Of a DNA stretch of 64,000 bases, positions 21,524-58,556 are shown one piece after another. The notes under the pieces are model-generated. The model searched no databases and had not been told where the DNA came from. It saw only the letters and a program-made list of their open reading frames with translations. The position numbers and the translations under genes were made by a program. Source of the stretch: Candidatus Kaiserbacteria bacterium CG10_big_fil_rev_8_21_14_0_10_47_16 (lineage in GTDB: Bacteria > Patescibacteriota > Minisyncoccia > Phycocordibacterales > UBA918); contig PFBI01000006.1 of NCBI GenBank assembly GCA_002773395.1, positions 335,860 to 399,859 of the forward strand, given 5' to 3'. Each line of letters starts with the position of its first letter. Position 1 is the stretch's first letter.

Positions 21524-21613
21524 ATATAGCAGTATTGTAGCACTCCATTCCACAGCAACTGCACCGCTGCACTCGCTGTGTAACGTATACTATATATGTA
21601 ACAAACACACGTC

Positions 21614-22492
21614 GTGAGTAGTCGTATTCGTATTGGAGTAGCACTGGTAGTTGGAGTCGTCATCATCGGCGGGGCCTTTTATCTACGCGGACAAACAGAA
21701 GTATTGCCCACAGGAATTCTCTCTGTTTCTGGCAGCCCTACTCGCGGGTCTATTGCCGAGACCGACAAAAACAACAACGGTATCAACGACTGGGAGGAGT
21801 CATTGCAAACTCTCACCATCAACTCTGCATCGAAAACCGGCACCGCGATCGCGGCAGGCGGTGACTACGAGCCTAAAACGTTGACCGATCGTTTTGCTCA
21901 AAAGTTTTTTGAAGAATATACAACCTCAGACGCAAGCGGTTCCTCCGACCCAGCTGCGCAGCAGGCCTTTTTAAATTCTTCTATCGCACAGCTCAGCGGG
22001 GAAGCGTTGGACACACCCTACACACAAAAAGATATTCGTATCGGCGATTCTTCACCACAAGCCCTGCGCGATTACGGAAATAATATTTCAGACATTGTGA
22101 ATCGTTACTCGGGTGCGAGTACAGAAAACGAACTTACCGTATTTGCCCGTGTCATCGACAATGACAATGCGAAAGATTACCAAACACTTACAAACATCAG
22201 TACCGCATATAGCAAGGTTCTTGCTGATACACTGGTACTAGCGGTACCACCCGAACTTGCTTCTTCGCATCTCCTTCTTGTGAATGCGTATCTTGCTGTT
22301 CAGGCCGATGTCGCCGCAATGGCAAATGCAAAAACTGACCCACTCTACGCTCTCGTACGTGTAAAGCGATACGAGGAAGACGCCAAAGCGCTGTACGCCG
22401 TTTTCAATACCATATATTCGTACCTCTACTCAAGTGGCGTACGATACGCGAGCGATGAACCGGGATCAATATTCCAAGTAGCAGGGAACTAG
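21614..22492 (+). CDS. Hypothetical membrane-anchored secreted protein (first gene of the T4SS-like operon)
   Basis: N-terminal TM (IGVALVVGVVIIGGAFYL) followed by a hydrophilic domain. No known family. Confidence 0.55.
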   Translation: MSSRIRIGVALVVGVVIIGGAFYLRGQTEVLPTGILSVSGSPTRGSIAETDKNNNGINDWEESLQTLTINSASKTGTAIAAGGDYEPKTLTDRFAQKFFEEYTTSDASGSSDPAAQQAFLNSSIAQLSGEALDTPYTQKDIRIGDSSPQALRDYGNNISDIVNRYSGASTENELTVFARVIDNDNAKDYQTLTNISTAYSKVLADTLVLAVPPELASSHLLLVNAYLAVQADVAAMANAKTDPLYALVRVKRYEEDAKALYAVFNTIYSYLYSSGVRYASDEPGSIFQVAGN

Positions 22493-22498
22493 CACACT

Positions 22499-23881
22499 AT
22501 GACGGACACAACACCAACACAAAAAAACAGGTGGTCTCTCGCACGATATGCCGTTACCTTGGTTCTTATTTTGTCTTTTGCTGCGGCTCCACTTTCAATA
22601 ACATCCTCGCTCCATATACAAAAACAAGAAGCTGCTGCGCAGTGGTCGGTACTTGATGCCGCCAACCTTGTGAAGAACACGTTCGTTGCCGCAATCCAAA
22701 ATTCACTTCAAGTAAAGGAGTTCTCTCTCGACGCGATTGCATACGCACTTGCGAAGCAGGCAATTCAATCAATGACGACGAGTATTGTGCAGTGGATTAA
22801 CTCCGGCTTTAAGGGGAGTCCTGCCTTCGTCCAAAACCTCGAGTTCCATTTAAACTATCTGGCCGACCGTGTGGCGTCTGAATTCTTCTCTGAGCTCGGA
22901 GGTGGATTTCTCTGTGCGCCATTCCAACTCAATGTGCGTGCTGCAATTTCTTTGCAGTACAACAATAATAAATACTACAAGAACCGCGGACAGTGCAGCC
23001 TCTCAAGCGTCGCTGCAAATATTGAAAACTTTGGTAAGGCGGGCGTCACCTCAAGTTGGGGGAACTTCATGCAAGTGGCAATGTACCCACAAAACAATCC
23101 GTACGGATCAATGGCACTCGCACAACAGGAACTGACCCTCCGTATTGTGAACGCGCGCAATCAGGAAGTTGAACTTCTTAGTTTCGGTGACGGATTCCTT
23201 TCGTACCGCGATACAGAGGACGCATGGTGTATAGGACAACCGGTTGAGAAGTGTCCTGTTATAACACCGGGGAAGGTTATCTCTGAACAGCTCAACAAAT
23301 CGCTTGGCGCAGGTCAGGATGTATTGGTAAGTGCCGACGAAATCAACGAAATAATCGGTGCACTCTTTGCGCAACTCACGACACAAGCTATCACCGGAGT
23401 AAACGGACTCCTCGGGGTTTCTTCAGGCCAGAACGGTAGTCAATCGTATCTCAATCAGGTAAACAGTGACAAAACGAAAGTAGGATACGACGCTTCAAGT
23501 TACACAAACGTGACTCAAACCCTTCAAACCGAACAGACCTTCCTCAGTCTCAACGAACAAATTGTGACCACAATAAATGGCGCTGCGACGCTTTCGTGTT
23601 CACAGTCACTCCCAACAAGTCTTGTGACTGCACGATCAACTGCATCGGCTGCGGTCACCAGCACTCGCACAAACGTTTCTCGCCTTGAAGGGTTCCAGAG
23701 TCAATTAAGCGGAACGTCAAATTCTAAGGAACAAGAAACGATCTTCTCACAGTTCCAAGCATTTGCATCATCTGGAGTACTTCATTCACCAGCTACCGTT
23801 ACAAGTCTCCAGAATACGGTCGATAGTATTACTGCTGCAGTCACCAGTTACGAGGCGTCATACTGTAAAACAACTCCATAA
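22499..23881 (+). CDS. Hypothetical membrane-anchored secreted protein, Cys-containing
   Basis: N-terminal TM and a 430-aa extracytoplasmic domain. It starts 7 nt after the previous gene. Confidence 0.55.
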   Translation: MTDTTPTQKNRWSLARYAVTLVLILSFAAAPLSITSSLHIQKQEAAAQWSVLDAANLVKNTFVAAIQNSLQVKEFSLDAIAYALAKQAIQSMTTSIVQWINSGFKGSPAFVQNLEFHLNYLADRVASEFFSELGGGFLCAPFQLNVRAAISLQYNNNKYYKNRGQCSLSSVAANIENFGKAGVTSSWGNFMQVAMYPQNNPYGSMALAQQELTLRIVNARNQEVELLSFGDGFLSYRDTEDAWCIGQPVEKCPVITPGKVISEQLNKSLGAGQDVLVSADEINEIIGALFAQLTTQAITGVNGLLGVSSGQNGSQSYLNQVNSDKTKVGYDASSYTNVTQTLQTEQTFLSLNEQIVTTINGAATLSCSQSLPTSLVTARSTASAAVTSTRTNVSRLEGFQSQLSGTSNSKEQETIFSQFQAFASSGVLHSPATVTSLQNTVDSITAAVTSYEASYCKTTP

Positions 23882-23883
23882 GT

Positions 23884-25971
23884 ATGTTCTCTTTTGCTCA
23901 CAACAAAAAACATCTCCTCATAGCTGCTCTTTTTGTGTGTTCACTTGCATTCACGGCGTTGAGCGCCCCCCAATACGCACATGCACAAACACCTGCCGCA
24001 CAACCCGCGGCAACCACTGGAACTGCCGCAACTCCAACAGCAACTGCACCCGCTGCAGCTACCACTGAGAGCCCAAAAGAGACAGGGGGAGGGGTAGGGA
24101 GTTTCCTTGGGAACCTCGTACTCAGTCTCGGTGGTGCTATCGCCGGTCTTGGCGGATGGCTTCTTGATGGAGCGATTGATAAGTTTGTCATCCACATTGC
24201 CGACGGCCTTCATGCAAACGAACCTCTCGGCAAGGCGATCTCAACACTCTGGACCGTCGTGCGCGACATAGTGAACCTCGTATTCATTTTCGGGTTTGTG
24301 TACATTGGTATTCGCACCATCATCGATCCGAGTCGAGCACAAACAAAGTCCTTCCTCTCGCAACTCGTTGTTGCTGCACTCCTCGTCAACTTTAGTCTCT
24401 TCTTTGTAAAGTTTGTGATCGATATCGCAAATGTCACCTCGCTCGAAATTTATAATCTTATTGGGGGTGGGCAGGGGAATATCGCGGCGCAGTTTGCGGC
24501 GCATGTTGGCGTGCCCGACTGGTTTACAGCAAAAGACCCTGAGCAACTTGCACAACTTTCTGGCGAAACCGCCCTTGTCTACTACATTATGGCAGCCCTC
24601 TTCCTCATCATTGCCGGATTCACCTTTGCTGCTGGTGCATTCCTCCTCGTCTCCCGCTACATCGTGCTCATTCTCCTCATGATTTTTTCACCGCTTATCT
24701 TTGCGGCAATGGTGTTCCCACAACTCGGAAAAATCGGAGGCGGCCTCATGGGAAGACTCATCAACTATGCCTTCATGGCGCCCGCCTATCTTTTCTTACT
24801 CTATCTCTCACTCTCAGTGGTTGTCGCAGCGAGCCCTAGTAAGGCAACAAGTATTCGTGATGTCTTCGCAGGAGGTATCAATGGCTCGAGTACCAATGGT
24901 GATATTTCAATCATTCTCGTCTTCTTTATTGGTATTGGACTGCTCATCGCTTCACTCCAAGCCGCAAAGGCGCTTGGGGTCGCCGGATCCCAACAAACAC
25001 TTAAGTTTGGGAATTATCTTCGTGGACAAGCCCAAAGCTTTGTTGGTAGAAACACTGTAGGTCGTGCCGGCGACATGGCTTTGAAAGCGTATGAAAAGGT
25101 GGACGCAAAAGCGACGAGTTCGAAGACTGGGCGATTCCTTCGCGGAGCCGTTTCTGTTGCATCTGTTGGTGTCCTGAGTGACCGAAGTGTCCGCACAGGT
25201 CTGCAAAAAACTTCTGGCGCGAAATTCGGTGGGACAACTTCGTTTACTGACGCTAAAAAGTATGATGAGGATCTCAGTAAACGACGCTCTGGTCTGCGCG
25301 CTGAGATGCAACGCGAAAAAGATATTGAAAAAGGTATTGGTCTTGCGAATACTGATCTTAGTAAACTTTCTGAAGATGAGAAGAAAGTCCATTCAGAGGA
25401 CATGCAAAAGATGGTTGATGCCATTGAGGATCTTACTGCAGACCAAATGAAAGACCTCGAGCTCAACATTCTTACAAATGAGGATGTGGCTGTGCACCTT
25501 TCAATGAAACAAATTGAAGGTCTTGAAAAGACTGGTAAGTACTCTGACGCTCAAATTGAAAGTATTAAGGACGCCAAGAAAGCTGGTACACGTGCCATTG
25601 CGCTCAACACAAACGGTCGCGGTGAAATGAAGGTTGGTGGCCGAACGCAGCAAGAGCGACTGGTAAAGCAAAATGTAAACGACGTTGGCGCTCTCCATGT
25701 TTCAATCTTCAAAGCTCGCGATATGGCAAGATACCTTACTCCGGCAATGGTTGAGGCTCGCATGCAGCGTGGCATCACTGAACAAGATCTCTTTGATCCG
25801 AATGAGAAGGACCCTGACCAAGTGGGTATCCGGCAAAGTCTTAATACGTACCTCAATGATACCGACACCCCACAGAGTGTTATTCAGCAGTGGGCTAAGT
25901 GGAAAGAGAAGTCACCGGTATACGCAGCGCGCCTTAATCTCGACATTCCTGACTCCTCAACGAATAATTAG
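23884..25971 (+). CDS. VirB6/TrbL-like polytopic membrane protein with a signal peptide, Thr/Ala/Pro-rich linker and a C-terminal coiled-coil cytoplasmic domain
   Basis: Signal peptide, at least 6 hydrophobic helices, 695 aa, and a position next to PrgI/VirB4 genes. The assignment rests on topology and context, not motif identity. Confidence 0.45.
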   Translation: MFSFAHNKKHLLIAALFVCSLAFTALSAPQYAHAQTPAAQPAATTGTAATPTATAPAAATTESPKETGGGVGSFLGNLVLSLGGAIAGLGGWLLDGAIDKFVIHIADGLHANEPLGKAISTLWTVVRDIVNLVFIFGFVYIGIRTIIDPSRAQTKSFLSQLVVAALLVNFSLFFVKFVIDIANVTSLEIYNLIGGGQGNIAAQFAAHVGVPDWFTAKDPEQLAQLSGETALVYYIMAALFLIIAGFTFAAGAFLLVSRYIVLILLMIFSPLIFAAMVFPQLGKIGGGLMGRLINYAFMAPAYLFLLYLSLSVVVAASPSKATSIRDVFAGGINGSSTNGDISIILVFFIGIGLLIASLQAAKALGVAGSQQTLKFGNYLRGQAQSFVGRNTVGRAGDMALKAYEKVDAKATSSKTGRFLRGAVSVASVGVLSDRSVRTGLQKTSGAKFGGTTSFTDAKKYDEDLSKRRSGLRAEMQREKDIEKGIGLANTDLSKLSEDEKKVHSEDMQKMVDAIEDLTADQMKDLELNILTNEDVAVHLSMKQIEGLEKTGKYSDAQIESIKDAKKAGTRAIALNTNGRGEMKVGGRTQQERLVKQNVNDVGALHVSIFKARDMARYLTPAMVEARMQRGITEQDLFDPNEKDPDQVGIRQSLNTYLNDTDTPQSVIQQWAKWKEKSPVYAARLNLDIPDSSTNN

Positions 25972-25980
25972 TATCGGCAT

Positions 25981-26451
25981 ATGAATTCAAATTGGGATAC
26001 CTTTCAAGAAAAATATAGAGCGGCTCCACCGCACATTCAGAATATTATAGATTCTGATGTGATCTTACTTTTCGTGAGAAAAATTAAATCCGCATGCGAT
26101 TTGCCTGTTCTAAAAACAGACGACCTAATAATTCTAGTCAGTGACTGTGTACTTGGAATACAAAAACCTGAAGAGCTTTTTAACTCGGAGATTTTTGCAG
26201 CCGTCTCGGCAGAGAAGCGGGGGAAGGTGATTGATATGATTAACGATTTTGTAAAAAATCCTCCAAGTGTGCCTACCTCCGCTGCAGATCCTGTGGAAAT
26301 TGCACCTGTTGCAGCACTGGATCAAGATTCTGCGAATGTCACTCAAAGTGAACCTCCAAAGACTCCTTCGCCTGGACCTACTCAGCTGCCGCAGCGGTAC
26401 ATGAAGCCGCTCACTGAGATGCCGCGATATGACGATAAGGGTCGGCGGTAG
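25981..26451 (+). CDS. Hypothetical cytoplasmic protein
   Basis: ORF in the operon with no TM segments and a Pro-rich C-terminus. Confidence 0.5.
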   Translation: MNSNWDTFQEKYRAAPPHIQNIIDSDVILLFVRKIKSACDLPVLKTDDLIILVSDCVLGIQKPEELFNSEIFAAVSAEKRGKVIDMINDFVKNPPSVPTSAADPVEIAPVAALDQDSANVTQSEPPKTPSPGPTQLPQRYMKPLTEMPRYDDKGRR

Positions 26452-26515
26452 TCTCTCGAGAATCTTTCAACGTCGTCACTTCAGATTTCTGGTTCGACTG
26501 TTGTACAATGGATGA

Positions 26516-26947
26516 ATGCGCTTTGAGGTACCACAGTTTATTGAAATCGAAGACAAGATCATTGGCCCATTCACGTGGAAGCAATTCATTTATATTGCTG
26601 GCGGTGGGGGAGCGGTACTTGTGTTGTATTTCACCCTTCCGTTTATACTCTTCGCCATACTTGGTGTTCCGATTGCGGCACTTGCGGGCTTCCTCGCATT
26701 CCACAAAATAAACAATCGGCCCTTCTCAGTCTTCCTTGAATCAATGGTAAGCTATTTTATGGGGAACAAGCTGTACCTATGGAAGAAAAAACAAGGTCAA
26801 ATCATTACCGCAGAGAAGACGCTCTATAAAAGTCCTGTTGCAGAAGCTCCAACATCATCACCTGTTCCAGGGAATGACAATATTTCTTCACTTGCGCGCA
26901 AGCTTGAGATGAATGCACTTGAGAACCCTACCCCTGACCAACAATAA
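26516..26947 (+). CDS. PrgI-family (VirB3-like) small membrane protein of Gram-positive-type T4SS
   Basis: The N-terminal DKIIGPFTWKQFIYIAGG motif resembles the PrgI family signature (KIFGPLTLRQFIYL). Two TM helices, and it lies directly upstream of VirB4. Confidence 0.6.
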   Translation: MRFEVPQFIEIEDKIIGPFTWKQFIYIAGGGGAVLVLYFTLPFILFAILGVPIAALAGFLAFHKINNRPFSVFLESMVSYFMGNKLYLWKKKQGQIITAEKTLYKSPVAEAPTSSPVPGNDNISSLARKLEMNALENPTPDQQ

Positions 26948-26952
26948 CTACT

Positions 26953-27594
26953 ATGCCTTCTTCAACGAAACAAACCTCAGCACAAGACTTTGTACCGATC
27001 GCCGACATTAGAGACGGTGTCGTTATTTTAAAAGATGGCCAGATGTGCAGTGTTCTCCTTGCCTCATCAATCAACTTCGCGCTCAAATCGACCGACGAAC
27101 AAACTGCCATCTTGGCGCAGTTCCAAGCATTCCTCAACACCCTCGATTTTTCAATACAAATGCACGTCGAGTCGAGACGTCTCGATATTCGACCGTATCT
27201 TGAGATGCTCGCGACCCGCGAGAGTACCCAATACAACGATCTCATGCGCACACAGCTTCGCGAATACATGGAGTTTATTCGTTCATTTACTGAAGAGGTG
27301 GATATCATGGCGAAGCGCTTTTTCCTTGTCATTCCGTACAGCCCGACGACAACCAACGTGCGGAGCAACATCACAAGCTTCCTTGGGCGTCGGTCTACGG
27401 CACCCTTTGATGCAAACCGCTTCCGTGAGCATCAAACCCAACTCGAGCAACGCGTTGATGTGGTCACACAAGGGCTCGCACGTATTGGTGTGAAGACACT
27501 TCCACTCGGAACCGACGAGCTCACCGAACTCTATTACCACATCTTTAATCCGGGGGAGCAGTCGGCTGCACCACGCCCAACAAATGCTATATGA
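26953..27594 (+). CDS. VirB4/TraC-family N-terminal domain encoded as a separate ORF
   Basis: The IADIRDGVVILKDGQMCSVLLASSINFALKSTDEQTAIL...SIQMHVESRRLDI pattern is typical of the VirB4/TrbE N-terminal domain. Its stop overlaps the next start (ATATGA). Confidence 0.6.
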   Translation: MPSSTKQTSAQDFVPIADIRDGVVILKDGQMCSVLLASSINFALKSTDEQTAILAQFQAFLNTLDFSIQMHVESRRLDIRPYLEMLATRESTQYNDLMRTQLREYMEFIRSFTEEVDIMAKRFFLVIPYSPTTTNVRSNITSFLGRRSTAPFDANRFREHQTQLEQRVDVVTQGLARIGVKTLPLGTDELTELYYHIFNPGEQSAAPRPTNAI

Positions 27595-29411
27595 GTGTTT
27601 TTGATTTTCTAAAAAAGAAGCCCGCAGCGCCGCAACCACCTTCTGATGGTACGCCAACAGATATTTCCGCAGGCACCGGTATGAATATCCCTGATATTAT
27701 TGCGCCTGCTGCAATCAGTATCAACCCGCAAAGTCTCAATGTGAGCGGACGTCTTTCGCGCGTCTTCTTTGCAGTGTCATACCCACGATATCTCAATGAC
27801 GGCTGGCTCGAACCAATCCTCAACCTCTCACGCGAGATGGATATTTCTATTGTGGTACACCCGATCAACACAGCAGATACGCTGAAGAAATTCCAAAAGA
27901 AAGTTGCCGAGGTACAGAGCCAAATTGCTGACCGTGAAGGACGTGGGCAAGTGCGTGATCCACAACTTGAGGCGGCATACCGAAACCTCGAAGACCTCCG
28001 TGACAAGCTCCAACAAGCAGAAGAGAAGCTCTTTGACGTTGGTTTCTATATTGCAATTTACGGCGACACTGAGGCAGAGCTCAGCAAAACGGAAACGGAA
28101 ATTAAAAGTATTCTTGACGCCCGTCTCGTCTACATTAAGCCGGCAGTATTCCAGCAGGAACAAGGGTTCCGAAGTATTTTGCCAACTGCGCGCGATGAGC
28201 TTTTGGTACACAACAAGTTTAATTCGTCACCGCTCTCAAGCTTTTTCCCATTCACCTCATTCGACCTCACGTCTGACACGGGGATTCTCTACGGCATCAA
28301 CCGCCACAACTCATCACTCGTTCTCTTTGATCGATTCTCACTTGCCAACTACAACTCAGTGACCTTTGCAACCTCTGGTGCAGGGAAGTCATACGCAGTA
28401 AAGCTCGAGATTCTTCGGTCAATGATGTTTGGGACGGAGGTGATTGTCATCGACCCTGAACACGAGTACGAGTACCTCGCAGAAGCAACCGGCGGACGGT
28501 TCTTTAATATTTCACTTTCTTCAGACCACCATATCAATCCGTTCGATCTTCCGATGCCACAGGCAGATGAGAACCCTGAAGATGTTCTCCGTTCACATAT
28601 CATCGAGCTCGTTGGCCTCTTTAAACTCATGCTTGGTGGACTTACGCCTGAAGAAGACGCCTTGATCGATCAAGCGCTTCGCGAAACGTACGCCCTCAAA
28701 GACATTACCGGAGCCTCTGATTTCTCGAGCCTTGAACCACCACTTCTGTCTGACTTCGAAATGGTACTCGCGGGAATGGAGGGGAGTAGTTCACTCCTCA
28801 GTCGTCTCTCAAAGTACACCACGGGTACATGGGCAGGTTTCATGAATAAGCCCACAAACGTAGATATCAACCAGAAGTTTATTGTGTTCTCTCTCCGCGA
28901 CATGGAAGAGGAACTCAAGAGTATTGCGATGTATATTGTGACAAACCACATTTGGGGAGCTATCCGCCGAGAACTTAAAAAGAGACTCCTCGTTATTGAC
29001 GAGGCATGGTGGATGCTCAAACAAGAGAGCACTGCAGAATTCCTTCACGGCATTGCAAAGCGCGGTCGCAAGTACTACCTCGGTCTCGCAACAATTACAC
29101 AGGACGTGGACGATTTCTTGCGCTCACCATACGGTGTCCCAATGATCACCAACTCCTCGATGCAGCTTTTGATGAAGCAGTCGCCGACGGCGATCGATAC
29201 CCTCCAGCAAGTGTTCAATCTCACCGACGAGGAGAAGTATTTGCTCCTTGAGTCAGGAGTGGGGGAGGGGATATTCTTTGCAGGACTCAAGCATGTGGCT
29301 ATTAAGGTGATCGCTTCTTACACTGAAGACCAGATCATCACCTCCGATCCATCGCAGCTGCTCCAAATAAAGGCAGCCCGACAAGAGTTTCAGAATGCGG
29401 CAGGACACTAG
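27591..29411 (+). CDS. VirB4-like type IV secretion ATPase (C-terminal ATPase portion)
   Basis: Walker A ATSGAGKS and the VirB4-specific DEAW Walker B (VIDEAWWML). Length 606 aa; together with the upstream ORF it totals about 819 aa. Confidence 0.75.
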   Translation: MSVFDFLKKKPAAPQPPSDGTPTDISAGTGMNIPDIIAPAAISINPQSLNVSGRLSRVFFAVSYPRYLNDGWLEPILNLSREMDISIVVHPINTADTLKKFQKKVAEVQSQIADREGRGQVRDPQLEAAYRNLEDLRDKLQQAEEKLFDVGFYIAIYGDTEAELSKTETEIKSILDARLVYIKPAVFQQEQGFRSILPTARDELLVHNKFNSSPLSSFFPFTSFDLTSDTGILYGINRHNSSLVLFDRFSLANYNSVTFATSGAGKSYAVKLEILRSMMFGTEVIVIDPEHEYEYLAEATGGRFFNISLSSDHHINPFDLPMPQADENPEDVLRSHIIELVGLFKLMLGGLTPEEDALIDQALRETYALKDITGASDFSSLEPPLLSDFEMVLAGMEGSSSLLSRLSKYTTGTWAGFMNKPTNVDINQKFIVFSLRDMEEELKSIAMYIVTNHIWGAIRRELKKRLLVIDEAWWMLKQESTAEFLHGIAKRGRKYYLGLATITQDVDDFLRSPYGVPMITNSSMQLLMKQSPTAIDTLQQVFNLTDEEKYLLLESGVGEGIFFAGLKHVAIKVIASYTEDQIITSDPSQLLQIKAARQEFQNAAGH

Positions 29412-29455
29412 GTGTCCTGTTTTGCTTTTTTATTTGGTCTCTTTCCCTTTATACT

Positions 29456-30235
29456 GTGTCTATGGCTCGTGAATCAGCAGAACGTATTGAAGCAAATGAT
29501 TCATTTCCTTCTACGCGGGTACAAAATGCCCAAGCAGTTTCTTCGAGCCGCCAGACTGTCCACTCTGACTTCGCACAAAGCAAGAGCTTGCAGGCGAAGG
29601 TCCACGAGCAACGTTTCAATAAACCAAAGGCAGCGAATGATAACTTCTCGCAAGCTGCAAATGACAACAGTCCATCACTGACGCAACGTGTACTGCGTCG
29701 TGATGCAAAAGAGGACATTGAGGAACAATCGCTTGCCGGCACCATTCTCTCTACTGGGAAAGCTGCGAAGGGAACGGCTATCGCAGCCGAACGTGTTGCT
29801 GCAACCGCTGTGCTTCTTTACTCCATCGCTGCAATCACATACGTGTTTATATTTATATTTGGCGTTATTGCGCTTGGTCTGATCTACGCAGGAACGTCAT
29901 CAGTTCTTGGAGTCAGTCTTGACGGTGTCGTAAAAGGGGCGACGACCGTGCTCTCGTGGTTTGGTTTGGGTGATGGCGGTGTTGGGGTTAGTGATATTGG
30001 GGGCGTACTGTGGGCCTTCGCTGTGCTTTTTGCTTTTATTGGGTATCTCGTTATTGGAGTTATAGCCACCTTTACACTCCGCACCAACTTCCTTGATTCC
30101 TCTGAGTTCTTTCTTGTGACCGTAGTGACACTTGGAGCAAGTATGGCGCCCGTTTCACAGCTCTTTCCATGGATTGCCGTATGGGTGTTCTATATCCAAG
30201 CAACCACTATTACGAAAGCACTGAAAAAGAGGTAG
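29456..30235 (+). CDS. Hypothetical membrane protein (cytoplasmic N-terminus, 4 C-terminal TM helices)
   Basis: ORF in the operon with its hydrophobic C-terminal half. Confidence 0.5.
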   Translation: MSMARESAERIEANDSFPSTRVQNAQAVSSSRQTVHSDFAQSKSLQAKVHEQRFNKPKAANDNFSQAANDNSPSLTQRVLRRDAKEDIEEQSLAGTILSTGKAAKGTAIAAERVAATAVLLYSIAAITYVFIFIFGVIALGLIYAGTSSVLGVSLDGVVKGATTVLSWFGLGDGGVGVSDIGGVLWAFAVLFAFIGYLVIGVIATFTLRTNFLDSSEFFLVTVVTLGASMAPVSQLFPWIAVWVFYIQATTITKALKKR

Positions 30236-30269
30236 GGCTTTCCTCACATGCCAGCGTATCGCGCGCATA

Positions 30270-31274
30270 GTGCATGGTAAGCTATATGATATGAAGAGTG
30301 TATCGATTACCTCCACACTTATTGCTGTCTTTTTTGTATGTGTATGCAGTTTCTTCCTTGTTTTTGCAGGATATGTACACGCGCAGTCTTTTGCTGACGA
30401 AGCATCACTTGAAGTGTCCCCACGCACCCCCGCTCCATTTAGTACAGTGACAGTTTCTCTTAATGCGTACACCCTCGATACCGTTGGCGCTTCTATACGG
30501 TGGTATATAGATGGCACTGAATCTACGAATGTGCGCAATGAGCGTGCAATCACGCTCATTGCGAAGGATCTTGGAGAGGCAACCGTTGTACGCGCCACAC
30601 TCACACTCGCAAGTGGAGTACCGCTTACCGTCTCAACGACCATCGTACCGACATCCATTGATCTTATTATTGAAGCAGATACATTGGTGCCGAGTTTCTA
30701 TAAAGGACGTGCTCTTCCTGTGAGCGGTGCGCCGCTTACATTAATAGCTATCCCACACGATGGTAGTAATAAAGGACCAGGGTCTTATTCATACTCATGG
30801 AAGTTAGGAGAAGATATACTCTTTGGTGGTTCTGTTATGGGGAAATATCGCATCACCACTACAATGCCGCAATACTCACGACCACTCGTTGTTACTGTTT
30901 ATGATTCAACAGGGAAGACAGTTGGGAGTGCTGCGGTCAATCTTGAGCCTGTGAGTCCAGAGCTATACTTCTACGAAACAAATCCTCTCCGCGGACTTTC
31001 AGAGCGTGCGGTAAATGGTTCGTACACACTCATTGGTGACGAAGTCACCATGCGCGCTGAGCCATACTTCATGACTGCAAATATCTTTTCGCAAAGTCCG
31101 CTTATCGCGTGGACGATTGACGGTCGCGAAGTAGCGACCAACGAGACCGACTCCGGCTCAATCACGCTGCGACGAGAGGGTGGAAGCGGTTCTGCTAATA
31201 TCGGTTTCCGTCTTTCGAACCAAGCACAATTCTTACAGCATGTGACCGGTTCATTTAATTTGAGTTTTCAATAA
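30270..31274 (+). CDS. Hypothetical secreted protein with three roughly 100-aa beta-rich repeats
   Basis: Signal/TM anchor followed by an internally repeated domain (...TVSLNAYT... / ...LTLIAIPHDG... / ...EVTMRAEPYF...). Confidence 0.5.
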   Translation: MHGKLYDMKSVSITSTLIAVFFVCVCSFFLVFAGYVHAQSFADEASLEVSPRTPAPFSTVTVSLNAYTLDTVGASIRWYIDGTESTNVRNERAITLIAKDLGEATVVRATLTLASGVPLTVSTTIVPTSIDLIIEADTLVPSFYKGRALPVSGAPLTLIAIPHDGSNKGPGSYSYSWKLGEDILFGGSVMGKYRITTTMPQYSRPLVVTVYDSTGKTVGSAAVNLEPVSPELYFYETNPLRGLSERAVNGSYTLIGDEVTMRAEPYFMTANIFSQSPLIAWTIDGREVATNETDSGSITLRREGGSGSANIGFRLSNQAQFLQHVTGSFNLSFQ

Positions 31275-31277
31275 TAT

Positions 31278-32240
31278 ATGACGTACGCTACTCGTAACAT
31301 TCTGTACATAACACTCTCTGCACTCTTCACATTCTTTGTCTGTGCATCGTATGCCCTTGCTGCAGCAGATCCGTACGTACCACTCGTAGGAATCCCAGGG
31401 GTTGAGACCACGGGTAAAGCAGGTCTCACTACGTACCTCAATCAGCTCTTTATTCTCACCATTATTGGAGGGGCGCTCATCGCAGTGGTGAAGATATCAA
31501 TCGCTGGCTTTAAGTGGATGATGACTGATAGTATGTCAACCAAAGGTGACGCACGTGCAGATATTACCGGAGCGCTTCTTGGACTTGGTATTCTTCTCGC
31601 AACCTACGTGGTACTCAACACCATCAACCCTGACCTCACACGTTTGGACGTCCTTAGAAACGCTCCCGCGACATCGTATATCACACCGCAGAATTCAAAT
31701 GGCGGCACTGGCGCTGCCGCAAGCGCGGGTGTTCCACAAACAATAGACTCCGTGACCGTAAGTAGTGACAAGTCTCAAGCGGAAGCTTTGGCAGAGGCCC
31801 AAACCGCTGCCACCTCTGGTGATGCTGCAGCAGAATGCCGAGCAAAGGGGGCGACACCTCGAATTAAACCAGTGTTGGGGGATAATTACCAAGTAACTGC
31901 CAATGATATTATCTGCCCAACAGCAGCCTCCGACAGCGGGAGCAAGGGATATTCCGGACCGAATGCAAAAGCTGACGCAGACGCTTCCGTTGCTGCCTGT
32001 AACGAGGCTAATGGGAAAGGTTCCTCTGCTCAACAGCTGTGGGGAAATGAGGCCTCATACGTAGTGACGTGCGATTGGGATGTAATCGCACAAAACTTCT
32101 CAACCAAAACCACCGCTGAAGCCGCGGTCAAAACATGTACAACTGCAGGAAGGGCCGCAGAAGTTAAAACAGCTGGATTCTTTTCTTCTGGATACACGGC
32201 AAACTGTTCGAGTTTGACCGGCGAGTGGCCACCAAAATAA
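31278..32240 (+). CDS. Secreted protein whose N-terminal roughly 120 aa resemble a VirB2/TrbC-type pilin (signal peptide plus two hydrophobic helices), with a roughly 200-aa Cys-containing C-terminal extension
   Basis: Topology only: a signal peptide ending ALAAA, then hydrophobic segments LFILTIIGGALIAVV and ALLGLGILLATYVVL separated by a short polar loop. Confidence 0.3.
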   Translation: MTYATRNILYITLSALFTFFVCASYALAAADPYVPLVGIPGVETTGKAGLTTYLNQLFILTIIGGALIAVVKISIAGFKWMMTDSMSTKGDARADITGALLGLGILLATYVVLNTINPDLTRLDVLRNAPATSYITPQNSNGGTGAAASAGVPQTIDSVTVSSDKSQAEALAEAQTAATSGDAAAECRAKGATPRIKPVLGDNYQVTANDIICPTAASDSGSKGYSGPNAKADADASVAACNEANGKGSSAQQLWGNEASYVVTCDWDVIAQNFSTKTTAEAAVKTCTTAGRAAEVKTAGFFSSGYTANCSSLTGEWPPK

Positions 32241-32243
32241 TTT

Positions 32244-33473
32244 ATGAAAAAAACTCTCATCATCACTATTGGCGTTCTCATCCTCATTCTTGTCGTGGGG
32301 GTATGGGCTTACCTCTTTATGTTTGGAACACCAAAGAGCACCGGTGAAGTATTTGCAAACTTTGGACTCGGGAACAATGATGCAGTAACCACTCCAACGA
32401 CAACCAATGACGGCACCTCGCTCCCGATAAGTGATTCGGTATTTAACAATGTTATCGAAGCGCGAACATTCCAACAACTCACCACGAAGCCAGTGGCAGG
32501 AATGACCTTTGTCGGAAGTACGACTATTCGGTACATGGAGCAGGGGACAGGGTACATATTTGATATTGATACAGAAACAGGCACCGAGCGACAAGTTGTC
32601 GGCAACACCTTCACAAAGGTGCGTAGTGCGGTCTTCTCGCTCGATGGTACATCAGTTGCACTCACACGCGATGAAGGACGTGCATCACGTATCACAGTAG
32701 GAACCATTGTGGAGGGCGAGGGAAGGGACACACTCCGAAGCGTTAATCTCCCGCTTGGATCATCCGAGCCCCACTTTAGTACCACTGCCACAAGCACCTT
32801 CAACTATCTCTACACCACAGCTGCTGGTGGGACGGGCCACGCGTACAACGTACTGACAGGGAACGACAGTGTCCTCTTCACCATTCCGTTTACGTCTGCA
32901 CACATCCTTTGGGGTACCCACACCTATGTGTACACAAAACCAACCGCTGAGCTTGCGGGGTATGTGTACGAAATAAAGAACGGGTCACTTGGTTTCGTAA
33001 CGAACGGTGGTACCGGGCTTATGGCGACAGCATATGCTGGCGGAGTGATCACAACGCTCTCAAACAGTCCAACAATGTTTTCTAGCGTCAACCCACAAAG
33101 TGGTGGTGATTCTTCCACACTTCCTGTTTCAGTTATCCCTGAGAAATGTACGTTCTTGGACCGTATACCCAATGAGCTTGTCTGCGCTGTACCCGCAACT
33201 CTCCCGGATGATGCCACCTACCCGGATGATTGGTATAAGGGGGTGATTTCATTTGCTGACCGGTTTTGGTTAATTGATACAGCGAACGGAAGTGCCCGGT
33301 TAGTTGCTGATCCGACCGCTGACGCTGGTCGAGACGTTGACGTTCTCAAACTTGAGGTAAACGGTGAGGGAACACAGTTCCTCTTCATTAACAAAAATGA
33401 CAACACGCTTTGGCTTCTCAATTTGACTGACACCAGTTTTGTCCCCGAAGACACCGCTACTACTGAAAACTAA
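32244..33473 (+). CDS. Hypothetical membrane-anchored secreted protein (last gene of the operon)
   Basis: N-terminal TM and a 380-aa extracytoplasmic domain. It is followed by the hairpin AACCGGTGCCCATGGGCACCGGTT + T-run. Confidence 0.5.
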   Translation: MKKTLIITIGVLILILVVGVWAYLFMFGTPKSTGEVFANFGLGNNDAVTTPTTTNDGTSLPISDSVFNNVIEARTFQQLTTKPVAGMTFVGSTTIRYMEQGTGYIFDIDTETGTERQVVGNTFTKVRSAVFSLDGTSVALTRDEGRASRITVGTIVEGEGRDTLRSVNLPLGSSEPHFSTTATSTFNYLYTTAAGGTGHAYNVLTGNDSVLFTIPFTSAHILWGTHTYVYTKPTAELAGYVYEIKNGSLGFVTNGGTGLMATAYAGGVITTLSNSPTMFSSVNPQSGGDSSTLPVSVIPEKCTFLDRIPNELVCAVPATLPDDATYPDDWYKGVISFADRFWLIDTANGSARLVADPTADAGRDVDVLKLEVNGEGTQFLFINKNDNTLWLLNLTDTSFVPEDTATTEN

Positions 33474-33518: not shown

Positions 33519-34283
33519 TTATATTTGTTTTTCAAGTTCTTCTGGGAGCACATGTGGATGCCGTTTCCGAACGACGTACTCTTGTGCAATACCGAAGATG
33601 TTACTAACTGCGAAGTAGAGAGCTATAGCTGCTGAGATTGTATACCCAATCACAAAGATAATGATTGGCATACCGTACTTCATTTGTATCTGCATACTGC
33701 GACTGAAATCATCTTTGAAGTTTGGTGTCGCATCTTTTTCGCGAGGTTTCAGTGGTGGGAGTGACATCTTCATAAGGACGTACTGTGAGAGACCTGCGAT
33801 GAGCGCGATCGGGAAACTCTTTGCAGCCATATCAACAGCACCGAGAAAGAGCATCGATGCTGTTTCTGGGTTTGGAATAAAACTATAAAGGATTGCGGTG
33901 TTGATTTCAGGCAAGTGTACGCCTCCACCACGTGCTACTGAGAAGTAGAGCGCAATAATGATTGGGATTTGGATAAACAGAAGGAGAATACTTGAGAAAG
34001 GATTTACGCCCGCTTTCTTGTAAAGCTCCATCATGTGCTTCGCCAGTTCTTCGCGCTTATCTTTGTACTTCTCTTGTATCCGTTTGAGTTCCGGTTCAAT
34101 AAGTCTCATTGCACGCTGTGTATGCGCAGCCTTCATTGAGAGAGGGAGGAGTACCGTCTTTACCACAATAGTGGTGAAGACAATCGCAAGTCCTATATCT
34201 CCTCCGGGTACGACGTCAATAAAAAAGACAAGGATGTTATATACAGGATCAAAGAATATGGTGTGCCAAAGATTTAAAAACAT
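33519..34283 (-). CDS. yidC: Membrane protein insertase YidC (short form)
   Basis: YidC/Oxa1 core with 5 TM helices, downstream of rnpA as in most bacteria. Confidence 0.85.
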   Translation of the reverse strand: MFLNLWHTIFFDPVYNILVFFIDVVPGGDIGLAIVFTTIVVKTVLLPLSMKAAHTQRAMRLIEPELKRIQEKYKDKREELAKHMMELYKKAGVNPFSSILLLFIQIPIIIALYFSVARGGGVHLPEINTAILYSFIPNPETASMLFLGAVDMAAKSFPIALIAGLSQYVLMKMSLPPLKPREKDATPNFKDDFSRSMQIQMKYGMPIIIFVIGYTISAAIALYFAVSNIFGIAQEYVVRKRHPHVLPEELEKQI

Positions 34284-34295
34284 AAGGTCTACAGT

Positions 34296-34628
34296 CTATC
34301 GTGTATTCTGTATTCTTCCAACCGCAGCAGACACCGCATGACTGAGATCCTCATACGAAGCGCCAACTGCATCCTTCTTTAAAAGAATAATGCAGACACC
34401 GGTGCGTGCCTGTGCTCGCGCGAGGCGACGCAAGATGTCATACACCTGCCGCCTGATTTTGTTCCGCTTTACCGCAGACTTAAGTATCTTCTTTGGTACT
34501 ACAACTGCACCATGGAATGCATTGTGCGGGGCACACACAAGGGTAAAGAGGGGAGTGTGGAGGCGTTTCCCCGACGCAAAAAAGCGATCAAAATCGCTTT
34601 TTGTGAGACGTTCAGTCTTCGCGAGCAT
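34296..34628 (-). CDS. rnpA: Ribonuclease P protein component
   Basis: A 110-aa basic protein with the RNR motif region (KRNKIRRQ), located between rpmH and yidC. Confidence 0.8.
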   Translation of the reverse strand: MLAKTERLTKSDFDRFFASGKRLHTPLFTLVCAPHNAFHGAVVVPKKILKSAVKRNKIRRQVYDILRRLARAQARTGVCIILLKKDAVGASYEDLSHAVSAAVGRIQNTR

Positions 34629-34636
34629 GTGTATTA

Positions 34637-34774
34637 TTATACACTGAGTTTTGCTCGTCCTTTTCGTCTACGTGACTGGAGGATTTTTGACCCTGACTTC
34701 GTGCCGCTTCGCACAAGGAAACCGTGCGTTGTTGCGCGTTTTCGTTTCTTTGGCTGATACGTTCGTTTTGGCAT
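34637..34774 (-). CDS. rpmH: 50S ribosomal protein L34
   Basis: Manual translation gives [45 protein letters not shown] (45 aa), a canonical L34. It is not in the ORF track because it is under 60 aa. Confidence 0.8.
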
Positions 34775-35012
34775 ACTGGTTCGTTATGTGAGAGTGCACT
34801 GTACACCATATAATAAACAAAATCAAGATACTCACCAGCCCTCCACTCTTTGACTTTTTAAGTCATTGACAGTTACCGCAATTTAGAGCTCTCCACAGGT
34901 TGTACACAGGTAGACAAACAATATCCCCACAAACACTGCGTATTTGTGGAAAACGTTTACACATCTTGAGAGACCGGTATAATGCTTTCTATCGCTTGAA
35001 TGTTCTATCTCT

Positions 35013-36395
35013 ATGGATTCACTTACACAATCATCTCGCAGTATCGTTCAGACACAGCAAATTGATGTTAAGCAGCTCTGGGACGACACTCTCGTCCAGA
35101 TTGAGCTTTCCATTACCGCTGCCAACTTCAAAACATGGTTTCGTGACACACATATTGTGTCTCTCGAGGACGGAACAGTGACCCTTGGCGTCCCCAGTGT
35201 CTTTGTGCGCGACTGGCTTGCTGATAAGTTCCAATCGCTCATCTTGAAAACCCTCCGTGACCTCACTCCACACGTTCGAAGTATCGAATACGCGGTGGTG
35301 CAACGCTCAAGTAAGAAGTTTGAGTCAAGTAAGAAGCAAACAGTAAACGCAACCCTGCCCCTTGAGGAGTACTACATCAACAAGAACGACAACCTCAACC
35401 CGAAGTATCTTTTCGAAACGTTTGTTGTCGGCCCATTCAACGAACTTGCGCATGCTGCTGCAAAAGCCGTGTGTGAAAAGCCGGGGATTGTGTACAACCC
35501 ACTCTTTATTTATGGAAAAACAGGCCACGGGAAGACACACCTTATCCAAGCGGTAGGGAACCAACTAAAACGAAATGGCCGAAGTGTGTTCTATGTCACC
35601 AGTGAGCGGTTTGCGGTGGATTATATGAACTCTCTCCAGAGTGGTACCGCAAATAACTTCAAAAATAAGTACCGCCAGTACGATGTGCTTATCATGGACG
35701 ACGTGCAGTTCCTCTCAAGTAAGGAAAAGACGCAGGAAGAACTCTTCCACCTCTTCAACGCAATGCACGACAACAACAAACAGATTGTGTTCTCAAGTGA
35801 TACGCACCCAGCACTACTCTCAGGGCTCCAGGAACGTCTCCAGTCACGTTTTGCACAAGGAATGATTGTAGACATCCCGCAGCCTGACAGTGAGTCTCGT
35901 GCGTCGATTATTCAATCAAAGACTGCACGCAGTAATATCACGCTTGAGAATGACGTTATCACCTTCCTTGCGACGACTATTGAGGGGAACATCCGGGAGC
36001 TTGAGGGTGCGCTCAACATTGTAATGTGCCAAACACAGGTGACTGGACGAACACTTTCACTCGATGAGGTTGTCGCGCTCATGAAAAACAGCGCGCGCCC
36101 ACGACGATCACTCGCGGTATCTGATGTTGTTGATAAAGTCGCACGATACTTTGATGTCGAACCATCTAGTATCTACGAAAAAACGCGGCGAAAGGAGATT
36201 GTGAAGCCTCGACAGCTCATTATGTACATTCTCCGAGAAGATTTTGCGGTCTCATACCCATCTATCGGCCAAAAGCTTGGTGGGCGTGACCACACAACCG
36301 TCATCCACTCATGTGAAAAGATTAAGCGTGAGGTGTTGGAAGGGAATGATGATTTGGTAGAAGAAATTGCTCAAATTCGAGCGCTTCTCCAATAA
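35013..36395 (+). CDS. dnaA: Chromosomal replication initiator protein DnaA
   Basis: AAA+ Walker A GKTGHGKTHL, sensor motifs and a C-terminal DnaA-box-binding HTH. Confidence 0.95.
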   Translation: MDSLTQSSRSIVQTQQIDVKQLWDDTLVQIELSITAANFKTWFRDTHIVSLEDGTVTLGVPSVFVRDWLADKFQSLILKTLRDLTPHVRSIEYAVVQRSSKKFESSKKQTVNATLPLEEYYINKNDNLNPKYLFETFVVGPFNELAHAAAKAVCEKPGIVYNPLFIYGKTGHGKTHLIQAVGNQLKRNGRSVFYVTSERFAVDYMNSLQSGTANNFKNKYRQYDVLIMDDVQFLSSKEKTQEELFHLFNAMHDNNKQIVFSSDTHPALLSGLQERLQSRFAQGMIVDIPQPDSESRASIIQSKTARSNITLENDVITFLATTIEGNIRELEGALNIVMCQTQVTGRTLSLDEVVALMKNSARPRRSLAVSDVVDKVARYFDVEPSSIYEKTRRKEIVKPRQLIMYILREDFAVSYPSIGQKLGGRDHTTVIHSCEKIKREVLEGNDDLVEEIAQIRALLQ

Positions 36396-36422
36396 AAACA
36401 GCGTGTCTACGCTGTTTTTATA

Positions 36423-36714
36423 AGCCCTCGAAACCCCTGTGTACTACCTGTGAATATCGATGGTAAAATCACTGTGGAAGACTCGGTATGAATGTGTGTA
36501 TAAACGACAAATAATTTACACTTATGCACACATATACACCGACAGCCCAAATAGGTAGAGTATATGCACACCAATGTGAGGGTGAGTACACAGTTTTTCT
36601 TTCAGAGTGTTGATGAGATAAAGGTGAAGGTATACGGTAAAATTGGTTTATACACCTATCCACACTCCTAATAGGGAATAGTGGTTTTAGAAAAAATAAA
36701 TAATAAGAACAGTT
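36423..36714. other. Putative oriC segment with DnaA-box-like 9-mers and an AT-rich unwinding element between dnaA and dnaN
   Basis: TTATNCACA-like sites are visible (TGTGTATAA, TTATGCACA, TTATACACC, TATCCACAC, TTATGCACA at the dnaN start), along with an AT-rich run TTTTAGAAAAAATAAATAATAAGAA. More boxes (TATCCCCACA, TTTTCCACAAA) lie between rpmH and dnaA. Confidence 0.5.
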
Positions 36715-37803
36715 ATGCACATCACGGTCGACCATATAAAACTCCAAAATCTTCTCGAAAGAGTTGCACGAGTGAGTACAAAACACCTCACACTCCCTGC
36801 GCTCCAATGTGTACTTCTTGATGTAAAAGAAAACACCCTCACTATTCGCGCAACAAATCTAGAGATAGGTATTGAAGGCACTATTGCAGTTGATGTAAAA
36901 GAAGAGGGAACAGTGAGTGTTATTGCGCAAACGTTTTTACAAATTGTTTCACTTATTTCACAAAAAGACGTAACACTTCACACAGAAGGTGATGTGCTTA
37001 TTGTGGAGACAAAAACATCACGCACAACAATCCATACAATTACTGCACAAGATTTCCCTCATATCCCAAAAGTGGAAGGGAAAGGACAGGTTATTAAAGG
37101 AACTATTTTTGCAAATGCAGTAAAGACGGCAGCGTTTGCTGCGTCACAGTCGTCTATTAAGCCAGAACTCGGCTCAGTGTATGTATTTCAAAAGAAGGAA
37201 CACACACTTACCTGTGTTGCGACAGACTCCTTCCGATTGGTAGAAAAAACAGTTTCCCAACAAAATGTTGTTCTTGAAGAGGGAATACTTATTCCCGCGA
37301 AGAATGCACTTGAACTCGCGCGACTCTGTGATTCCCAAGATGACGACCCAATGTTGTACATAACAGAGAATCAATGTGCGTTGCAGTTTGAGAACATCTA
37401 TATCACATCACGGCTTACGTCAGGAACCTTCCCTGACTACGCTCAGATCATTCCTAAGGAGTTTGTGAGCCATAGTACACTCCTTACCCAAGACCTGCAG
37501 AATGCGCTCAAGAAGACGAGTATATTCCTTAATAAGTTCATGCAGCTTACGATCGCGGCGTCAGCGCAAAATCTCACCCTTACCTCAAAAGGTGATGTAG
37601 GGACAACAACTGAGAAAACACCCGCAAGTCTTGAGGGGGATGAAATCTCCTTAAACTTCAACCAACGATATATCGCAGATATTTTAGGGTACATCACCGA
37701 CGAAAGTATAACGATTCACTTTGCAGGGACGGGGCGACCGATCATTATTGAAAGTGTGCACGATAAGTCACTCCGGTATTTGGTAATGCCAATGAATAAG
37801 TAG
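36715..37803 (+). CDS. dnaN: DNA polymerase III beta sliding clamp
   Basis: Three-domain beta-clamp length and sequence. Position after dnaA. Confidence 0.9.
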   Translation: MHITVDHIKLQNLLERVARVSTKHLTLPALQCVLLDVKENTLTIRATNLEIGIEGTIAVDVKEEGTVSVIAQTFLQIVSLISQKDVTLHTEGDVLIVETKTSRTTIHTITAQDFPHIPKVEGKGQVIKGTIFANAVKTAAFAASQSSIKPELGSVYVFQKKEHTLTCVATDSFRLVEKTVSQQNVVLEEGILIPAKNALELARLCDSQDDDPMLYITENQCALQFENIYITSRLTSGTFPDYAQIIPKEFVSHSTLLTQDLQNALKKTSIFLNKFMQLTIAASAQNLTLTSKGDVGTTTEKTPASLEGDEISLNFNQRYIADILGYITDESITIHFAGTGRPIIIESVHDKSLRYLVMPMNK

Positions 37804-53969: not shown

Positions 53970-54542
53970 TTATTTCCCAAGAATCTGAAGCGCAGCTTTA
54001 ATGCGGGCATTCGTTTCCGTGATGTCCTCAGCAATGACGGCGAGGACGTCTCGCGCATCGCGCTGAGTATACCCAAGCGCAATGAGCGCATCAAGAACAT
54101 CGCTGTCACCGCTGTGTATATGTGGTGCAGGAGAATCGTCCCGTGTGAAGGCGTGCATTTTATCTTTGAGCTCAAGGATTATTTTTTCGGCAGTCTTTTT
54201 CCCGATGCCGGACATCTTTGCGAGATACGAGGCGTCTTGTTTTGCGATTGCAGTATGGAGCAGTTTTATATCGGCCTGCGAAAGAATTTGGAGTGCTGAT
54301 TTCGGACCAATCTTAGGCAAGGTAAGAAGGAGCTCAAACATCGCGAGTTCATCGTCGGTAATAAACCCATAGAGGTCGAGCGCGTTCTCGCGCACCGCAA
54401 GGTGTGTGTAGAGGCGAACAGATTCACCGAGTGCAGGGTGCGTGTGCGCAGGCATTGCCACCTTGTAGCCGATACCGCCTATCTCAATAACGACAAATTC
54501 AGCGCAACTTTCAATAATAGTGCCAGAAAGACTTCGAATCAT
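53970..54542 (-). CDS. ruvA: Holliday junction DNA helicase RuvA
   Basis: OB-fold N-terminus, two HhH motifs (LLTLPKIGPKSA..., MSGIGKKTAEKI) and a C-terminal domain III. Confidence 0.85.
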   Translation of the reverse strand: MIRSLSGTIIESCAEFVVIEIGGIGYKVAMPAHTHPALGESVRLYTHLAVRENALDLYGFITDDELAMFELLLTLPKIGPKSALQILSQADIKLLHTAIAKQDASYLAKMSGIGKKTAEKIILELKDKMHAFTRDDSPAPHIHSGDSDVLDALIALGYTQRDARDVLAVIAEDITETNARIKAALQILGK

Positions 54543-54608
54543 ATTCTCAGTATACGCGATTGGAGAAGACTATTGTACCCATCACCGTGGTGGTACAATG
54601 TTTTCCAT

Positions 54609-55949: not shown

Positions 55950-56040
55950 TGTGTAGACGTGTGCTTGTCCCCAAAATAACGATACGTATGTGTATCGGCA
56001 AAGTGCTACACTAAGTAAAACGTGCTCGCACGTGTATTGT

Positions 56041-57072: not shown

Positions 57073-57076
57073 CGGT

Positions 57077-58474: not shown

Positions 58475-58556
58475 TTTTTCTTGTCCACAAAAGAAGCGCA
58501 ACGGCGAAGCCGTTTTGTGTACTCATGAGTGATACACTTATTCTATATAGTCATAT

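Follow-up and report, generated by a model that had tools for sequence, protein, structure and literature searches.

A VirB4 ATPase divided between two genes in the chromosomal type IV secretion locus of a Patescibacteria genome, most probably by an old natural split

When a VirB4 ATPase is encoded by two overlapping reading frames, is this a real gene arrangement, or is it a single gene cut by an error or by decay? The question is raised by a stretch of 64,000 nucleotides (hereafter the window) from Candidatus Kaiserbacteria bacterium CG10_big_fil_rev_8_21_14_0_10_47_16 (GenBank assembly GCA_002773395.1, contig PFBI01000006.1, positions 335,860 to 399,859), in which a VirB4 of a type IV secretion system (T4SS) is distributed over two open reading frames (ORFs), here called ORF1 and ORF2. 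A first-pass annotation, made from the sequence of the window alone, described them as translationally coupled parts of VirB4 and offered two readings, a genuine natural split or a frameshift, assembly error or recent pseudogene. We are highly confident that the locus encodes a naturally split VirB4 of a chromosomal Patescibacteria (Parcubacteria/Paceibacteria) T4SS, and that the fission is ancient and fixed rather than a lesion of this genome. The elements of the split gene, in positions of the window, are:

26953..27594, plus strand: ORF1, 213 amino acids (aa), ATG start; TrsD-like protein ('TraC-like', PF26593, in the precomputed annotation), putative VirB4 N-terminal subdomain
27591..29411, plus strand: ORF2, 606 aa, ATG start; VirB4 ATPase without its first ~180 residues
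27591..27594, plus strand: ATGA overlap, read from the sequence; possible termination-reinitiation site
28368..28391, plus strand: Walker A motif ATSGAGKS, ORF2 residues 260-267, by pattern match
28998..29009, plus strand: Walker B core DEAW, ORF2 residues 470-473, in the context RLLVIDEAWWM

The ORF map and a reading of the sequence return both ORFs, their coordinates and the ATGA overlap exactly as first annotated, and the Walker A and DEAW motifs are found in ORF2, where they had been placed. The junction reads GCT ATA TGA / ATG AGT, with the ORF2 ATG at 27591-27593, the ORF1 TGA at 27592-27594 and TG common to both. This overlap is unremarkable in itself, given that all junctions in the operon are tight (mostly 2-9 nucleotides (nt)). 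The two proteins sum to 819 aa, which is a normal VirB4 length, as had been pointed out. Upstream of the ORF2 ATG its frame stays open for just 15 codons (45 nt), and a single insertion or deletion (indel) within ~27549-27592 could mechanically join ORF1 and ORF2. A +1/-1 correction, which had been proposed as a check, could therefore give one continuous frame, and the hypothesis of a frameshift error is worth testing.

The exact ORF1 protein occurs on 12 contigs, and a 100-nt stretch across the junction is identical in all four contigs fetched, which were assembled independently (two JGI samples, a Logan assembly of SRR6240789 and an ENA assembly). Database searches return 4226 relatives of ORF1 at E<=1e-3 (exact match E=1e-133) which, together with the 370 bits of ORF2 on the CD1110 VirB4 model, places both ORFs far beyond chance. 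The best 120 of the 4226, from Parcubacteria, Kaiserbacteria and Paceibacteria bacteria, are all 205-218 aa long, with a conserved C-terminal sequence (...ELYYHIFNP..AP) before the stop. Identity between ORF1 and its relatives is 58-81%, with 63 invariant columns over 22 sequences, and ORF2 is 75-81% identical in the relatives compared. The closest relative (locus L090) has the same ATATGAGT at its ORF1/ORF2 junction; the genes of the closest relatives (at 81% and 72% identity) are likewise divided, and their spacers differ.

The split is equally consistent at greater distance. A scan of GTDB species representatives gives 439 genomes with an ORF1 relative, and at 79 of the 80 species-level Patescibacteria loci fetched the N-terminal piece (N-piece) ends in a stop and is followed by an ATPase gene of ~595-612 aa; the 80th locus ends before its split state can be judged. 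Relative to the N-piece, the ATPase gene is in frame at 20 loci, in +1 at 30 and in +2 at 29. The gap between the genes is 1-11 nt in 64 of the 79 loci and 40-80 nt in some others. Because the 20 in-frame pairs are divided by a genuine stop, no indel can explain their split. Among 50%-identity cluster representatives, the best 150 of 3200 (E<=1e-3) comprise 149 standalone proteins and a single fused one. The natural split suggested by the first-pass annotation, and its conservation in related genomes, which was to be checked, are thus borne out by the four assemblies, the 79 of 80 species-level loci and the thousands of standalone relatives. The same independent assemblies and deep conservation refute the suggested frameshift, assembly error or recent pseudogene.

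Several relatives have peculiarities of their own. At two Patescibacteria loci (L041, 4640-5036, and L083, 4628-5030) an insertion of ~400 nt divides the TrsD-like and VirB4 genes, so the two cistrons tolerate separation; it encodes a protein of ~118 aa (…FKDLxVWQKSF…IAEGSKRGSRKDF…AELETQLLL…), which we presume to resemble the four-helix-bundle/23S rRNA intervening-sequence protein family. At two others (L013, 4678-5138, and L016, 4645-6433) the ATPase gene is frameshifted, its high-scoring segment pairs falling into two frames close to ORF2 residues ~60 and ~100. Whether they reflect misassembly or genuine pseudogenes, these interruptions have no connection with the TrsD/VirB4 junction. An in-frame stop lies within the ORF1 homologue of L064. 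Long C-terminal tails are found in ~40 other representatives of 260-440 aa and in proteins P0171 (432 aa) and P0215 (443 aa); in some TrsD-like proteins the tails are 100-230 residues of low-complexity sequence, rich in Pro, Ala, Gln and Thr, after the conserved domain.

The two proteins cover complementary parts of VirB4. ORF2 passes the curated cut-off of the NCBIfam model NF045971 (CD1110-family VirB4) with 370 bits against 325, over positions 180-733 of 752, and stays under the cut-offs of the TIGR00929, NF045975 and TraC VirB4 models. It matches Pfam P-loop_TraG (PF19044, E=2e-26). The crystallised C-terminal domain of T. pseudethanolicus VirB4 (4AG5) corresponds to ORF2 residues 226-585 (E=1.5e-40), and residues 440-741 of R388 TrwK align to ORF2 residues 247-559 (E=2.6e-5). 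The protein thus has an N-proximal region (residues 1-225) and a RecA-like ATPase domain (226-585). From the offset of the TrwK alignment, ORF2 starts near TrwK residue ~190, and the cut, as placed by these alignments, falls inside the usual VirB4 N-terminal domain and not where this domain meets the ATPase domain. As a P-loop ATPase with both Walker motifs, a score above a curated cut-off and T4SS neighbours, ORF2 belongs to the VirB4 family; the N-terminal ~180 VirB4 residues are missing from its polypeptide, and those are the residues matched by ORF1. On the CD1110 model the coverage is complementary and without overlap (ORF1 positions 3-162, ORF2 180-733). On VirB4_plasma, the VirB4 of mycoplasma integrative and conjugative elements, ORF1 covers 99-257 and ORF2 293-893, and on TIGR00929 the respective positions are 3-172 and 257-725.

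A natural fusion gives the same order. The protein P0174 (797 aa, locus L088, 544-2937; GCA_964615945.1, contig CAZTUR010000004.1) is a TrsD-VirB4 fusion to which ORF1 aligns at residues 1-209 (40% identity) and ORF2 at residues 225-791 (55% identity), so that the two are collinear on it with a linker of ~15 residues between them. The fused gene has the same surroundings as the split gene here, with PrgI upstream and yidC-rnpA-rpmH-dnaA-dnaN downstream. Its linker reads ...RQG-MGG... (CAA GGG ATG GGC), and relatives have a stop ahead of ATGGG. The ATPase gene usually starts with MG, and the linker fits an in-frame split ancestor that lost its stop codon. This suggests that P0174 is a re-fusion by stop loss, or else an error in its metagenome-assembled genome (MAG), which is possible for a protein known from a single contig.

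ORF1 itself aligns to the N-terminal ends of VirB4 models, with profile positions 3-172 of NCBIfam VirB4_CagE (E=1.1e-7) and 3-162 of NCBIfam CD1110 VirB4 (E=5.4e-6). The first-pass annotation was thus right in matching it to the N-terminal end of VirB4, but too generous in taking it for the whole N-domain, as judged by profile coordinates ORF1 supplies only the first ~170-190 residues. ORF1 also matches positions 11-142 of 201 in the NCBIfam TrsD/TraD model NF041427 (E=9.3e-7) and, with 28.9 bits against a cut-off of 200, differs in this respect from TrsD of the pSK41 type. We regard it, on sequence similarity, as a remote homologue of TrsD/TraD that stands outside that subfamily. It has the TrsD/TraD layout, namely a standalone protein of ~200-230 aa whose gene is flanked by a VirB3-like gene and by a VirB4 that is short at its N-terminus. 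For the AlphaFold model of ORF1 (mean pLDDT 73), the 14 best PDB matches found by Foldseek are all R388 TrwK/VirB4 chains (best match E=2.7e-5, prob 1.00), which suggests a fold that is part of TrwK. Hydropathy analysis gives no transmembrane segment in ORF1 or ORF2, and ORF1 is thus predicted to be a separate soluble polypeptide.

Some observations weigh against reading ORF1 and ORF2 as one divided VirB4. The similarity of ORF1 to the VirB4 and TrsD models is weak (E ~1e-6 to 1e-7) and far under the curated cut-offs, and the Foldseek TM-score is modest (0.46). The Foldseek output comes without target coordinates, hence the placement of ORF1 at the TrwK N-terminus rests on the profile coordinates. 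A profile of ORF1 relatives finds only chance-level matches among PDB sequences (E>0.6), and structure prediction is therefore needed for the connection to TrwK. An alignment of ORF1 relatives compared with pSK41 TrsD in hhalign gives a marginal result, with 65 columns at a probability of 6%. As this alignment is shallow (Neff 1.9), the link to TrsD is carried by the NCBIfam hidden Markov model (E=9e-7), synteny and the equivalent start of the ATPase. A local hmmscan of ORF1 against Pfam-A returns no family at E<=0.01, whereas in the precomputed annotation PF26593 is assigned to ORF1 and to each of the best 120 of its 4226 relatives, a discrepancy that is possibly due to different library versions. 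Finally, the overlap of the two genes is not conserved in relatives, most of which have gaps of 1-11 nt, some gaps of 40-80 nt and two an inserted gene of ~400 nt.

The arrangement is ordinary for the lineage. It already bears the names TrsD/TraD and VirB4 and is documented for Patescibacteria in the passages on TrsD of Quinonero-Coronel et al. 2025 (Microb Genom, PMC12102498). As given there, TrsD is distantly homologous to the N-terminus of VirB4, and no T4SS component is more abundant in Patescibacteria (2272 homologues, 1664 of them beside virB4); it has 'no function assigned', and Ca. S. epibionticum ML1 has an essential homologue of it. We cite the resemblance between TrsD and the VirB4 N-terminus from these passages, which credit Guglielmini et al. 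2014 (PMC4027160), given that the string 'TrsD' is absent from the main text of the latter. The T4SSs described in PMC12102498 are chromosomal, lie near dnaA/dnaN and next to yidC, and have the same triad of PrgI/VirB3-like, TrsD-like and VirB4 genes. Compared with this description, nothing substantive is different here, and the present locus is a further example from a Parcubacteria/Paceibacteria host. Two points have no counterpart in the passages on TrsD, namely that the adjacent VirB4 lacks exactly the region of TrsD, and that a natural fusion exists. In a transposon-sequencing study of Ca. S. epibionticum ML1, the T4SS was essential for epibiotic growth, and it has no recognisable relaxase or coupling protein (Wang et al. 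2023, Cell, PMC10633639).

The same three-gene arrangement was found by a tblastn search of plasmids, and in all four of the following systems the start of the ATPase is equivalent to that of ORF2:

Geobacillus pGspE55-1: N-piece of 318 aa (L085, 3881-4837), ATPase of 636 aa
Clostridium botulinum pCBG: N-piece of 257 aa, 'TraC family protein' (L086, 3815-4588), ATPase of 620 aa
Haloprofundus (haloarchaeal) plasmid: N-piece of 349 aa (L087, 3665-4714), ATPase of 633 aa
staphylococcal pSK41: TrsD of 227 aa, ATPase (TrsE, DUF87) of 672 aa

In the pGO1/pSK41 systems (pGO1 subclass of MPF_FATA), a small membrane protein in the trsC position is likewise followed by TrsD and a DUF87/VirB4 ATPase. Residue 59 of ORF2 pairs with residue 60 of TrsE, and the gap between trsD and trsE is short (14 nt). 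These systems differ from the present one in that they serve plasmid-borne conjugation with a relaxase and a VirD4-like coupling protein. The N-pieces of the Bacillota plasmids (257-318 aa) have an N-terminal hydrophobic, probably transmembrane, helix that ORF1 lacks, and the Haloprofundus N-piece has an N-terminal extension of ~110 aa.

Full-length VirB4 proteins (A. tumefaciens VirB4, R388 TrwK and the CD1110/Tn916 Orf16 type; structures 7O41, 8RTB and 4AG5) share with the present pair the Walker A and DEAW motifs and an adjacent VirB3-like gene. They differ in being single polypeptides of ~750-830 aa, whereas at the present locus a gene of its own encodes the first ~180 residues. Fusions of VirB3 with VirB4, such as those of Campylobacter plasmids cited in PMC12102498, go the opposite way, by fusion instead of fission, and show that the VirB3, VirB4-N and VirB4-C modules join or separate in evolution. 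There is no such fusion at the present locus, and none in the Patescibacteria survey of that paper.

With this evidence the alternatives can be weighed. That one continuous VirB4 gene was artificially divided by a frameshift in sequencing or assembly is mechanically simple, given the 15 open codons and the single indel needed, and a fused relative of 797 aa exists. It is nevertheless close to untenable, as four independent assemblies, made from different samples with different assemblers, have exactly the same junction, 79 of 79 species-level relatives are split, 20 of them in frame with a real stop, and thousands of standalone relatives of ~210 aa have a conserved C-terminus. Recent pseudogenization, by which a VirB4 gene would be newly broken and decaying, is scarcely credible either. 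Small-genome symbionts do accumulate pseudogenes, and L013 and L016 are frameshifted within the ATPase gene, but these frameshifts lie elsewhere in the gene, away from the ORF1/ORF2 junction. Both pieces are intact in the window and conserved over deep divergence, the split point is common to Bacillota and archaeal plasmids, and the TrsD homologue that PMC12102498 gives as essential in Ca. S. epibionticum argues against a decaying gene. Programmed -1 ribosomal frameshifting near the overlap could make a full-length VirB4, either alongside the two products or in their place, and a -1 shift from ORF1 would indeed lead into the frame of ORF2, which is open over 45 nt ahead of the stop. However, a reading of 27549-27594 reveals no canonical X XXY YYZ slippery heptamer, and conservation of ORF2 sets in at its first Met, with most tblastn alignments beginning at query residue 1. 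Since relatives use all three relative frames and spacers of 1 to ~400 nt, there is no conserved frameshift signal, and we give this mechanism hardly any credence.

The only rival with some weight, though still an improbable one, is that ORF1 is an independent accessory T4SS protein, for example an old paralogue acting as a regulator or adaptor, that merely resembles the VirB4 N-terminus. The passages on TrsD in PMC12102498 treat it as a separate component, 'no function assigned', and about a quarter of the Patescibacteria homologues counted there are not adjacent to virB4. The sequence similarity to VirB4 is remote, and additions to the protein are frequent in the family, such as disordered C-terminal tails of 100-230 aa or, in Bacillota, N-terminal transmembrane helices. 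On the other side, the profile positions missing from ORF2 are exactly those that ORF1 supplies, and both are collinear on the natural fusion. Adjacency and gene order are kept at 79 of 80 loci, and the ATPase partners start equivalently in all split systems examined. A naturally split VirB4 is therefore the reading that we favour. For annotation, it follows that the two genes should not be labelled a frameshifted or pseudogenised virB4, and that ORF1, so far a 'hypothetical protein', may be named a TrsD-like VirB4 N-terminal subdomain. The complementarity and the natural fusion argue that TrsD is the missing N-terminal module of VirB4, in a T4SS on which epibiotic Patescibacteria depend. This provides a concrete, testable hypothesis for an essential T4SS component.

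More tentatively, and with the odds slightly against it, a single ancient fission of VirB4 near TrwK residue ~190 might have been passed down to Patescibacteria, pGO1/pSK41-type plasmids, Bacillota megaplasmids and haloarchaeal plasmids, and would then mark a sub-lineage of MPF_FATA. If so, TrsD would be the detachable N-terminal subdomain of VirB4, a separable adaptor between VirB3/PrgI and the ATPase hexamer. Such an adaptor could permit regulated or sub-stoichiometric assembly, and rare re-fusions such as P0174 would be secondary.

How a split VirB4 might work can be outlined by analogy. In R388 structures (PDB 7O41/8RTB) the N-terminal region of TrwK contacts TrwM/VirB3. For the present locus we infer that the operon is transcribed as a single unit and that translation of ORF2 starts in one of two ways, through reinitiation at the ATGA overlap or through the initiation independent of Shine-Dalgarno (SD) pairing that this genome seems to use throughout. 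The two polypeptides would most likely associate non-covalently into a VirB4-like unit. By analogy with the TrwK N-terminal domain in R388, ORF1 may dock on the PrgI/VirB3-like protein encoded upstream and bridge it to the ORF2 ATPase. An ORF2 hexamer would supply ATP hydrolysis for assembly of the machine, or for transport of a substrate or pilus.

As for translational coupling, which the first-pass annotation took as given, the ATGA overlap is real and makes coupling plausible from the arrangement of the two genes, but the overlap is not conserved among relatives. With spacers as varied as theirs, overlap-based coupling would be no conserved requirement. No SD motif is found upstream of ORF2, nor in the 30 nt before the 24 window genes inspected (for example those at 8866, 35013 and 46869). 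The organism appears to start translation without SD pairing and, with the motif missing at all 24 genes, its lack at ORF2 says nothing specific on coupling.

The split gene lies in a presumed T4SS operon, next to genes of the replication origin. The features of this part of the window are:

21614..33473, plus strand: presumed T4SS operon, co-directional and tightly packed genes (ORF map, spacing)
23884-25971, plus strand: polytopic membrane protein, 695 aa (hydropathy)
26516..26947, plus strand: PrgI family (VirB3-like) membrane protein, 143 aa (PF12666, E=3.3e-9, 37.6 bits against a cut-off of 27)
29456-30235, plus strand: membrane protein (hydropathy)
30270-31274, plus strand: membrane protein (hydropathy)
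31278-32240, plus strand: candidate pilin-like protein, 320 aa (Mbov_0395 pilin-like family, E=0.031, under the cut-off)
33519-34283, minus strand: yidC (Pfam 60KD_IMP)
35013-36395, plus strand: dnaA (Pfam Bac_DnaA)
36715-37803, plus strand: dnaN (Pfam DNA_pol3_beta)

The PrgI family gene is directly 5' of ORF1, and its product has one hydrophobic stretch (residues 24-65) with room for two membrane helices. The order PrgI, N-piece, ATPase is also found in L001, L085, L086, L088, L090 and L092, and in the JGI contig L001 the gene order is identical. The cluster is chromosomal and adjoins the replication-origin genes (33519..37803). In Pfam and NCBIfam scans the remaining ORFs of the cluster are without matches, and relaxase and VirD4 models match none of the cluster ORFs scanned, many of which match nothing at all.

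The protein at 31278-32240 has a signal-like N-terminus and two further hydrophobic helices, and may be a VirB2-like pilin as in other Patescibacteria T4SSs, with a long Cys-containing C-terminal extension. Directly upstream of the T4SS cluster and divergent from it lies a tyrosine recombinase gene (20600-21553, minus strand; Phage_integrase with a SAM-like N-domain, E=2e-47), which could be XerC/D or an integrase that marks a mobile origin of the cluster. Elsewhere in the window, a PilB/GspE-type ATPase (44705-46411, minus strand; T2SSE, E=8e-112, with an MshEN domain) indicates a type IV pilus or a system like type II secretion. An 895-aa protein (59603-62290, plus strand), for which CARDB cell-adhesion-related repeats are the sole match, is preceded by ORFs without a family (54402-59606) and may belong to a surface or adhesion locus.

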